Source: Escherichia coli (GTDB taxonomy: Bacteria; Pseudomonadota; Gammaproteobacteria; Enterobacterales; Enterobacteriaceae). From it: a stretch of DNA of 64,000 nt. Within the stretch, counting starts at the first letter, position 1; every line of letters begins with the position of its first letter. Location: assembly GCF_044324785.1 (NCBI RefSeq), contig NZ_CP172127.1. The stretch is one strand, 5' to 3'. Positions 38,070 to 39,779 of the stretch are shown here, piece by piece. Made by a program: the position numbers and the translations under genes. The notes beneath the pieces were generated by a model. That model was not told the DNA's origin and did no database searches. It was given only the letters and a program-made list of their open reading frames with translations.

Positions 38070-38250
38070 GCCGCACGGTTGTTTGGTGGCGTCAAAATCG
38101 CCGAGGCGTTCCCTGAAGGCCGGGGCAGCCCACATGGATGTGGGCTGAGGGCGCGTTTTACAGGGATAATGAGATGGACGCTCCAGATTTTACGGTATCA
38201 AAGTACCAGACTGGATCGTTGCAATACGTCCTGAAAAATTAGGAGCGTCC
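38070..38250 (+). ncRNA. Candidate structured ncRNA (bridge/guide-RNA-like) in the IS110 left end; speculative
   Basis: Downstream of the promoter-like motif; contains a 9-bp stem hairpin cagcccaca-tgga-tgtgggctg (38126-38147) and an inverted 10-mer. Confidence 0.25.
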
Positions 38251-38252
38251 AC

Positions 38253-39278
38253 ATGAAAGTATCAACTCTTGGTATCGACCTGGCAAAGAACGTTTTTCAG
38301 CTTCATGGTGTCGATCATGAAGGCCATACTATTTTGCGTAAAAAACTCACCCGGGCTAAGTTTGTTCAGTTTGTGATTCAACTGGAACCTTGTCTGATTG
38401 GCATGGAAGCCTGCTCATCCAGTCATTATTTTGCGCGATTATTCACCCGCTATGGTCATGAGGTAAAACTCATACCTCCGCAGTATGTGAAGCCTTATGT
38501 GAAAACGAACAAGACGGATGCAGCAGATGCTGAAGCAATCTGCGAAGCGGTAACCCGTCCGAATATGCGTTTTGTTCAGATAAAAACCGAAGAGCAGCAG
38601 GCCGTTTTAGCGTTACACACTGAACGGGGAATACTTATCCGTGAGCGGATTGCCTGTGCCAATAGTTTAAGAGCCACACTTGCTGAGTTTGGTATTACGA
38701 TTGCGGCCGGACAAAGCCATTTAACCCGTGAGCTGCCAGCCATTCTGGAGGATGGCGAAAATGGTTTATCTCCCTTTGTCAGAACCAGCATCTACAGACA
38801 GTCTAAACATATCCGGGAACTTGAAGAACAAGTTAAACAGGTAGAAGAAGCTCTGGCCTCCTGGTATAGAACGCAGGAAGCCTGCCAGAGAATGGCCAAA
38901 ATCCCGGGGGTTGGCATGCTAACGGCCACTTATGTGGTAGCAGCAGTGGGTAATGCCCGACAATTCAGTACCGCAAAGCAGTTCGCTTCATGGCTGGGGC
39001 TGACACCAAAGGAACATTCCAGCGGCGGGAAACAGCAACTGGGAGGGATCAGCAAACGTGGAGATGGATATTTCCGATACCTGCTGGTTCACGGCGCACG
39101 CGCACTTACCGCCTGGGTCAACCGAAACGGCGCGGTTGAGGAGAATTCCTGGCTTCAGGGACTCCTTGAGCGGAAGCACTACAATGTAGCTGTTGTCGCC
39201 ATGGCGGCAAAAACAGCGAGGATCATGTGGTCAATGTTGTCACACAATACTGAATATCAACCTCGGCAGCTCGCCTGA
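38253..39278 (+). CDS. IS110-family transposase/recombinase (DEDD RuvC-like N-domain plus C-terminal Tnp domain)
   Basis: 341 aa; N-terminal LGIDLAKN, GMEACSS, TDAADAEA motifs; C-terminal GLTPKEHSSGGK...GISKRGDGYFR; SD aggag. Confidence 0.85.
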   Translation: MKVSTLGIDLAKNVFQLHGVDHEGHTILRKKLTRAKFVQFVIQLEPCLIGMEACSSSHYFARLFTRYGHEVKLIPPQYVKPYVKTNKTDAADAEAICEAVTRPNMRFVQIKTEEQQAVLALHTERGILIRERIACANSLRATLAEFGITIAAGQSHLTRELPAILEDGENGLSPFVRTSIYRQSKHIRELEEQVKQVEEALASWYRTQEACQRMAKIPGVGMLTATYVVAAVGNARQFSTAKQFASWLGLTPKEHSSGGKQQLGGISKRGDGYFRYLLVHGARALTAWVNRNGAVEENSWLQGLLERKHYNVAVVAMAAKTARIMWSMLSHNTEYQPRQLA

Positions 39279-39638
39279 CACAAGGTCAGTCAATCTGACG
39301 AGGTGCTGAAAAAAAGTTAACGTCCTGGTAGGTGCAGGTGACTTCAGAAGATGGCAAAACAGGTAAGACCGCAGGCAGGATACACCGAGAGGTAACAAGG
39401 GCAAGTTAGCCCGTAGAGGATGATTGGTACCTGCCTGGCGGATTTCATCATGGTTCGGGATAAAAATCCCATCAGAAACCGGATATATGGCTGCACCTAC
39501 CCGTTTTATTACATAACTGAAGAAAGCATTGCATTCCGGGAGCGTCCATATATGTTACCTCGCGCCCGACCCGGTAGCCGTAAGGGATAAGCCGAGGGCA
39601 CCGCGCAGCGGCGATTTTGTTCGCCAGAGCCCGGGGGT

Positions 39639-39670
39639 GCAGGGGGCGGCGGCGATTGGCCGCCCCCTGC
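39639..39670. repeat. GC-rich perfect 12-bp-stem palindrome (gcagggggcggc-N8-gccgccccctgc)
   Basis: Read directly; no flanking U-tract; possibly a REP/BoxC-like host element or IS-associated structure. Confidence 0.5.
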
Positions 39671-39779
39671 GCGCTCCTTGCGCCAGTGATTATATGAAGC
39701 AATGCACATGACAGGAGCGCAACAGGATGAGAGACTGAAATATTCTCGTTATTTTCGGATCTGATGACATTAATTAATT

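Follow-up and report, generated by a model that had tools for sequence, protein, structure and literature searches.

Within the 64-kb stretch of Escherichia coli chromosomal DNA that we analysed (hereafter the window), a 1386-bp copy of ISEc81, an insertion sequence of the IS1111 group in the IS110 family, lies between dusC and yohP (38167-39552; coordinates refer to the window, and features are on its plus strand unless stated otherwise). Its ends were delimited by comparison with an empty site (L001), which reads ...ACAGGGAT|GTTACCTCG... and from which the occupied site differs by the element alone. The boundary slides by 2 bp because AT is present on both sides, and within the ambiguity of this overlap, the insertion is site-specific and made no target duplication. 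This site is likewise occupied in 173 of the 5426 E. coli genomes. Over its full length, the region from 38000 to 39750 matches E. coli ARL09/232 with 99.7% identity, and most genomes match the flanks alone.

The element interrupts a repeat of about 270 bp, present in a median of three copies per E. coli genome (here 38073-38167 and 39553-39730; intact at 370-650 of L001), and the same repeat flanks it in Kluyvera and Citrobacter. When uninterrupted, the repeat folds into a long and very stable hairpin (dG -143.8, z -5.3), and the insertion point falls within the loop of this hairpin, ACAGGGAU|GUUACC. One part of it (L001 380-531) has a sub-threshold Rfam hit to the TwoAYGGAY RNA (RF01731; 30.9 bits for a gathering score of 43, E = 0.012). 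There is also a weak Rfam match to AgvB, the anti-GcvB sRNA, on the minus strand just upstream of yohP (39697-39757; 22.9 bits for a gathering score of 56), which is probably due to chance (E values of 0.24 for the window and 0.084 for L001).

The element encodes a transposase of 341 amino acids, a DEDD RNA-guided recombinase (38253-39278). It matches the model of IS110-family RNA-guided transposases (NF033542) with 359 bits, for a cut-off of 140, and has both the N-terminal RuvC-like domain (PF01548, E = 1e-14) and the C-terminal domain (PF02371, E = 4e-24). Its length and the two domains correspond to those of the transposases of the IS1111 group (330-350 amino acids), and it shares about 98% identity with the ISfinder ISEc81 protein given in supplement file 6 of PMC11187229 (Siddiquee et al. 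2024). The group is recognised by terminal extensions, subterminal inverted repeats (sTIR), and a short left end (LE) combined with a long right end (RE) (PMC11187229, PMC11208160). All of these are found here. The noncoding LE has 86 bp and the RE has 274 bp, the longer region being, as in the rest of the group, downstream of the transposase gene. On the left, a terminal extension, TAATGAG (38167-38173; 7 bp by the convention of PMC11187229), precedes sTIR-L, ATGGACGCTCC (38174-38184). On the right, sTIR-R, GGAGCGTCCAT (39539-39549), is followed by a 3-bp extension, ATA (39550-39552). With the ends defined by the empty site, the two sTIRs make an 11-bp perfect inverted repeat (12/13 when extended) that is inset from both ends and within the 7-17 bp known for such repeats.

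An earlier note on this DNA had pointed to an inverted pair of 10-mers 57 nt apart and a third, direct copy further on. Exact matching in the window confirms this arrangement: TGGACGCTCC (copy 1, 38175-38184) and GGAGCGTCCA (copy 2, 38242-38251) are exact reverse complements of each other, the two arms are separated by 57 nt, and GGAGCGTCCA recurs at 39539-39548 (copy 3). When extended to the 13-mer GGAGCGTCCATAT, the third copy is identical to 38242-38254 at 12 of 13 positions. Three exact matches to GGAGCGTCCA in the window compare with 0.10 ± 0.33 expected from 100 dinucleotide shuffles, none of which reached three; with one mismatch allowed, the count (4 found, 4.0 expected) is uninformative. 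All three copies are inside the insertion sequence. Judging from the sequence of the ends, copy 1 is the left sTIR of ISEc81 and copy 3 the right one, located 7 and 3 bp, respectively, from its termini. For the third copy, the note had suggested that it may indicate the right sub-terminus or a feature of the circle junction, and both suggestions fit, since it is sTIR-R, 3 bp from the end of the element, and also sits in the spacer of the predicted junction promoter described below. Some details need correction. The third copy does lie after the stop codon, as claimed, but begins 261 nt past its last base (39278), not 260. The Shine-Dalgarno (SD) sequence, AGGAG, is at 38241-38245, which is 7 nt upstream of the ATG and not 2; copy 2 overlaps it, and the last base of this copy is 1 nt before the ATG (38253). 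What was called an IS110-family left end belongs to an element of the IS1111 type, not of the IS110 type in the narrow sense. That copy 1 is itself the left sTIR and that the RE holds a putative seekRNA, or bridge RNA, had been overlooked.

The region homologous to seekRNA/bridge RNA spans 39327-39501 and is closed by a perfect 11-bp stem (39327-39337 with 39491-39501). Its alignment with the REs of ISYen1, ISEc11, and three other relatives (L007, L052, and L014) has a conserved core, TGGCAAAACAGGTAAGACCG ... CCGGATATATGGCTGCA. A target-matching segment, GAGGUAACA (39389-39397), complements the top strand at the right junction (TGTTACCTC, 39553-39561), and its position is that of the top-strand match in the seekRNA of ISEc11 (CAGTATTTT against the target AAAATACTG). 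The match to the top strand has 9 nt and that to the bottom strand, read by eye, is weak (GGATG only). A donor-matching segment, GGAUAUAUGG (39481-39490), repeats the tip of the RE, CCATATAT (39546-39553). Four variable bases of this segment co-vary with the right terminal extension across six elements (ISEc81, ISYen1, L007, L052, ISEc11, and L014), as would be expected of a donor-binding guide. The Rfam search matched no family to the leader or to the RE RNA. In one relative (L023), a 14-nt stretch of the left end, GGAGGCTTGGCGG, at about -99 from the ATG, is complementary to the seekRNA region of the same element (CCGCCAAGCC, +96 after the stop); this complementarity is not seen in its close relative L014.

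Once joined, as they would be in the circular intermediate that is known for the IS1111 group, the ends of ISEc81 read TTGCAT-N16-TATAAT, which we take as a predicted circle-junction promoter. Its putative -35 is at 39529-39534, its 16-nt spacer holds sTIR-R, and its -10 would be assembled from the RE tip and the left extension (39551-39553 and 38168-38170). Most relatives have a TTGC-type hexamer (TTGCAA, TTGCGT, or TTGCCT) just 5' of the right sTIR, and the others have TTGGCA or TTGACA. An active circle-junction promoter has been reported for ISEc11 (PMC11187229). In ISEc81, the start site is predicted at 38176-38178, 6-8 nt after the junction -10, and would thus be within copy 1.

We folded the RNA of the leader (38160-38275), using 200 shuffles as a control. 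In both the minimum free energy (MFE) and the centroid structures, copy 1 (38175-38184) pairs over 10 bp with copy 2 (38242-38251) and, after a bulge, 38186-38191 pairs over 6 bp with 38235-38240. The fold has a dG of -33.4 kcal/mol (z = -2.96), and none of the 200 shuffles is as stable. The complementarity of the two copies extends to 17 nt at 88% (38175-38191 with 38235-38251), and the part of it that involves the inner segment of the 5' arm, GAUUUU (38186-38191), has no counterpart in the right sTIR. The 3' arm (38235-38251) contains the AGGAG and copy 2, and ends 1 nt before the ATG. Between the arms are an inner hairpin, GGUAU-CAAA-GUACC (38194-38207), and, in the MFE structure, a second hairpin (38213-38231), which is variable: relatives have a hairpin of different sequence in the same place. 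ISEc81 thus has an upstream leader segment that is complementary to the SD and start region and is predicted to pair with it.

The computed cost of opening the ribosome binding site (RBS; 38241-38255) depends on where the transcript begins. It amounts to 15.3-15.9 kcal/mol when the 5' end is at 38176 or further upstream, 11.7 for a start at 38177, 9.6 for a start at 38178, and about 7 when the arm is removed, in which case an alternative fold still keeps the SD about 80% paired. The predicted junction start (38176-38178) trims 1-3 bp of the arm and leaves 7-9 bp plus the 6-bp extension. A sigma-70 scan revealed no sigma-70-like promoter on the plus strand of the integrated left end. On the minus strand, there is a sigma-70-like site (38286 to 38258, TTGCCA-17-GATACT) directed leftwards through the leader, which could yield an antisense RNA of the kind known from ISPpu9. 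The site coincides in part with the coding sequence of the conserved GIDLAK motif, and sites of this type are no more numerous in the region than shuffles lead one to expect.

To place the stem in a broader context, we assembled relatives from a scan of species-representative genomes (34 loci) and from plasmid records (18). The latter include ISEc11, ISYen1, and IS4321/IS5075 (records L037, L049, L038, and L039), of which ISEc11 is L037, from plasmid pFORC43. The transposases of the relatives are 37-97% identical to that of ISEc81. We folded the region from -95 to +15 of each left end, 38 of them in a first survey and six more later. In 31 of the 38 left ends, the partner of at least five of the ten SD-zone nucleotides is more than 40 nt away, in an arm situated about 75 nt upstream, and the six later relatives mostly agree. 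In every case, 1-7 nt separate the 3' arm from the start codon. About seven of the 38 loci have a weak stem, or none, in the MFE structure (L011, L015, L019, L022, L023, L040, and L048), and the stem of ISYen1 carries an uncompensated C.A mismatch. The arms differ between elements and remain complementary: GGACGCTCC/GGAGCGTCC in ISEc81, GGTCGCCCC/GGGGCGACC in L007, GGATCCTC/GAGGATCC in L014, GGACTCTC/GAGAGTCC in L015, GGGTTCCC/GGGAACCC in L032, and GGAACGGCC/GGCCGTTCC-like in L045.

Alignment of the raw left ends with MAFFT, analysed with RNAalifold, recovered only the inner hairpin. The outer arms are missed because indels shift them out of register, and we therefore used folding of the individual loci together with an alignment of the arms (A4, 19 elements) anchored on the GG...CC that starts the best helix. 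This anchoring favours pairing, so the following figures are indicative and do not constitute a formal significance test: 80.9% of the cells of A4 are paired (68.0 in shuffles), 31 cells are double, i.e., compensatory, changes (8.4 ± 2.5 in shuffles, with 0 of 500 reaching 31), and the covariation score is 0.425, compared with 0.150 in shuffles and at most 0.14 when the partner column is slid by 1-3. The duplexes between arm and SD region have a mean of -21.3 kcal/mol for cognate and -15.2 for non-cognate combinations. Among the cells that are not Watson-Crick pairs, G.U (9) and A.C/C.A (10) are about equally frequent, a count that does not separate pairing in the plus-strand RNA from a symmetric complementarity at the DNA level. 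Single cases of G.U that favour RNA (IS4321 compared with IS5075; L016) are anecdotal. Within the limits of an alignment anchored on the helix, these data are indicative of an evolutionary maintenance, across the IS1111 group, of the pairing between an upstream arm and the SD region.

The stem occurs in two architectures. In architecture A, the left sTIR itself serves as the 5' arm (ISEc81, ISYen1, IS5075/IS4321, L007, L012, L040, and L043-L046). In architecture B, the SD region pairs with an arm at about -78 that is distinct from the left sTIR (ISEc11, L026, the L013-L027 clade, and L021), and the true sTIR-L is nearly invariant (ATGGACGCCTCCC) and located at about -110 to -206 from the ATG. 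We considered whether the -78 arm of the L013-L027 clade could be a left sTIR lacking a right partner; this was ruled out by the alignment of the right ends and by the presence of the real sTIR-L at -110 to -206. The right ends of architecture B (ISEc11-type) elements contain no copy of the -78 arm. The arm and the SD region of these elements vary together (GGATCC/GGATCC, GGACCC/GGGTCC, GGACTC/GAGTCC, and GGAGCC/GGCTCC). Because this arm is not a sTIR and still co-varies, the complementarity to the SD is preserved irrespective of the recombination repeats. The left end of ISEc11-type elements (L037 551-700; L026; L013-L027) has 125-210 bp, and a second, sTIR-like arm is retained in it solely to pair with the SD region. 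Such an arrangement is suggestive of an extension, or a re-termination, of the left end during the evolution of the group.

We propose, with a probability of about 0.65, that the leader stem of ISEc81 hides the RBS and keeps the translation of the transposase low, and that this pairing has been preserved by compensatory changes across the group. The transcribed sTIR-L region (38174-38191) would pair with 38235-38251, covering the SD up to 1 nt before the AUG and enclosing the conserved small hairpin and the variable one, and with the RBS hidden, little transposase would be translated. The earlier note had proposed that a long-range stem could occlude the RBS in read-through transcripts, and had suggested folding and a search for covariation in related left ends. 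The stem is indeed favoured and buries the SD, and compensatory substitutions do keep it across the IS1111 group; the selectivity for read-through transcripts is something that we only infer. In ISEc81-type elements, transcripts of the circle-junction promoter would start within the 5' arm and should be easier to translate than those reading through from dusC, which lies upstream of ISEc81 on the same strand. Repression of read-through is plausible for ISEc81, given the position of dusC, the failure to find a plus-strand promoter in its left end, and a predicted start that trims the arm. It cannot be the general role of the stem, because the junction transcripts of ISEc11-type elements would include the whole of it. 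In IS10 and IS50, native transcripts begin within or past the 5' arm and thereby avoid repression. The predicted start of ISEc81 would lower the opening cost by 4-6 kcal/mol but leave most of the stem, and the arm of ISEc11-type elements is well downstream of any junction start. Hence, a constitutive damper is more defensible as a general role than selective insulation.

The stem might instead serve mainly to stabilise or process the mRNA, either as a 5' stem-loop protecting it from RNase E or as an RNase III site splitting the leader from the transposase gene, with the covering of the SD being secondary. The module is long and has several hairpins, and the start predicted at 38176-38178 would put the stem 0-3 nt from the 5' end of the transcript, which is the geometry of known 5' stabilisers. 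However, the 3' arm covers the SD and start region in all cases and is never found in another part of the leader. Furthermore, the stem of ISEc11-type elements is internal, about 50-130 nt from any start of a junction promoter. We find this explanation unlikely.

A second alternative concerns DNA: the copy at 38242-38251 could be a third binding site for the transposase or its RNA-guided complex, an internal version of the right sTIR that acts in the autoregulation of transcription, as a decoy, or in synapsis, with the pairing of the RNA being incidental. It is an exact 10-mer of sTIR-R, and the counts of G.U and A.C cells do not favour RNA. Several observations speak against it. The SD-proximal arm of ISEc11-type elements complements an arm that is not a sTIR, and it does not resemble the real sTIRs. 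IS5075/IS4321, L040, L044, and L050 have an SD arm that reproduces sTIR-R unfaithfully, with indels and substitutions, and yet still pairs. The complementarity in ISEc81 runs 6 bp beyond the sTIR, and the SD-side arm is 1-7 nt from the start codon in every relative. Finally, mini-elements of ISEc11 that lack the module still transpose: with 50 bp of the left end, and with transposase and seekRNA provided in trans, they do so at 15-42%, and cargo inserted after bp 50 of the left end is tolerated (PMC11187229). In our record of ISEc11 (L037), these first 50 bp correspond to 551-600 and end before the arm at 622. We regard a third DNA site as quite improbable. The arms of architecture B, the mini-elements, the unfaithful copies, and the extension past the sTIR all favour the stem module being a structure of the leader RNA that controls expression, rather than a recombination site.

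The inner hairpin raises a different question. Its family consensus is CGGCAUC-N3-4-GUGCC. Of 44 left ends, 22 contain the strict motif, between -54 and -65, and it does not occur at any other position in these loci. The RNAalifold structure includes the hairpin, with compensatory pairs (C-G to U-A and G-C to A-U). Its sequence is conserved across elements with about 40% protein identity, beyond what occlusion of the SD explains, and for this reason it can be read as an operator. The leader of about 80 nt would then be an undescribed, IS1111-specific class of cis-regulatory RNA, the hairpin would be bound by the transposase or its ribonucleoprotein, and translation would be autoregulated and coupled to the loading of the seekRNA. 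We offer this extension tentatively and consider it unlikely. In a related alternative, the leader is a riboswitch-like device in which a factor acting in trans (the transposase on the inner hairpin, the RNA of the right sTIR, or an antisense transcript) opens or locks the stem and couples translation to the state of the element. The conservation of the inner hairpin fits this scheme, as do the identity of the right sTIR RNA of ISEc81 to the SD arm, which would allow it to compete for the 5' arm, the antisense promoter-like site at 38286 to 38258, and the precedent of ISPpu9, whose antisense RNA opens the leader structure (PMC8450116). Against it, sites like the antisense one are no more numerous than expected from shuffles, the rest of the loci has no hairpin that resembles the inner one, and the REs of ISEc11-type elements contain no competitor sequence. 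This last result ruled out competition by the right sTIR RNA as a general mechanism, and the scheme as a whole is, like the third DNA site, quite improbable. Finally, that the repeats arose by chance or as a passive by-product of duplication, and have no function, is suggested by nothing more than their small size and is extremely improbable in the light of three exact copies, where 0.10 are expected, and of the covariation across the family.

An RBS-occluding leader, as we propose for ISEc81, would give one short repeat two roles, that of a recombination-site repeat and that of an anti-SD arm. Because the 5' arm of ISEc81 doubles as a recombination-site repeat, the SD arm has to be almost identical to the right repeat, which results in three copies. 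The dual role would also explain the CUCC and GGAG cores of the sTIRs of the IS1111 group. For annotation, it means that a "third repeat" next to the start codon of such elements is best seen as a feature of the leader RNA and not as an additional end. The recombinases of the IS1111 and IS110 elements are being developed as programmable RNA-guided tools for genome editing, and the natural limits on their synthesis have been little studied. The stem, conserved across the group even where the repeat and anti-SD roles are separate, offers a testable control point for the expression of the transposase. Our literature search found no description of an SD-occluding stem in IS1111-group elements; older studies in J. 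Bacteriol., on IS4321/IS5075 (2003) and on the junction promoter of ISEc11 (2006), may mention the stem.

By analogy, the leader of ISEc81 would belong to a known class of mechanisms, with IS10, IS50, and ISPpu9 as examples. In the fold-back inhibition of IS10 and IS50, a sequence adjacent to the terminus is complementary to the initiation region of the transposase gene, which guards the element against activation by outside transcription. This mechanism was reportedly worked out by Davis, Simons, and Kleckner in 1985 and by Krebs and Reznikoff in 1986, and is said to be reviewed by Mahillon and Chandler (1998). As in these elements, leaders of ISEc81 that include the terminus of the insertion sequence are predicted to bury the RBS. 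ISEc81 differs in belonging to another family, with a DEDD RNA-guided recombinase, a circular intermediate, and a junction promoter, and in having a 5' arm that is the subterminal recombination repeat itself. Furthermore, its native start is a predicted one and would remove just 1-3 bp of the arm, and all transcripts of ISEc11-type elements would keep the stem.

The comparison with ISPpu9, of the IS110 group, is closer in terms of the protein, as the transposases are of the same superfamily, and in both cases the structure of the leader includes the RBS. The 5' UTR of its transposase gene folds into a structure that covers the RBS, and mutations that weaken this structure raise translation (PMC8450116). 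Besides a leader of 244 nt with a dedicated promoter, ISPpu9 has two further RNAs, the antisense activator Asr9 and the sponge Ssr9 (PMC8450116). It lacks subterminal repeats and has no similarity, in sequence or architecture, to the IS1111 module of about 80 nt. The closest parallels are ISEc11, ISYen1, IS4321, and IS5075, which share with ISEc81 the 7-bp and 3-bp extensions, the subterminal repeats, the short LE, the long RE with a seekRNA (putative in ISEc81), a right repeat preceded by a TTGC-type -35, and the SD-occluding stem. Nonetheless, ISEc11 has an LE of 150 bp and an anti-SD arm separate from the left repeat, and the module of IS5075/IS4321 is shorter and lacks the canonical inner hairpin. 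ISEc81 also differs from all four in its target, which is the structured repeat downstream of dusC.
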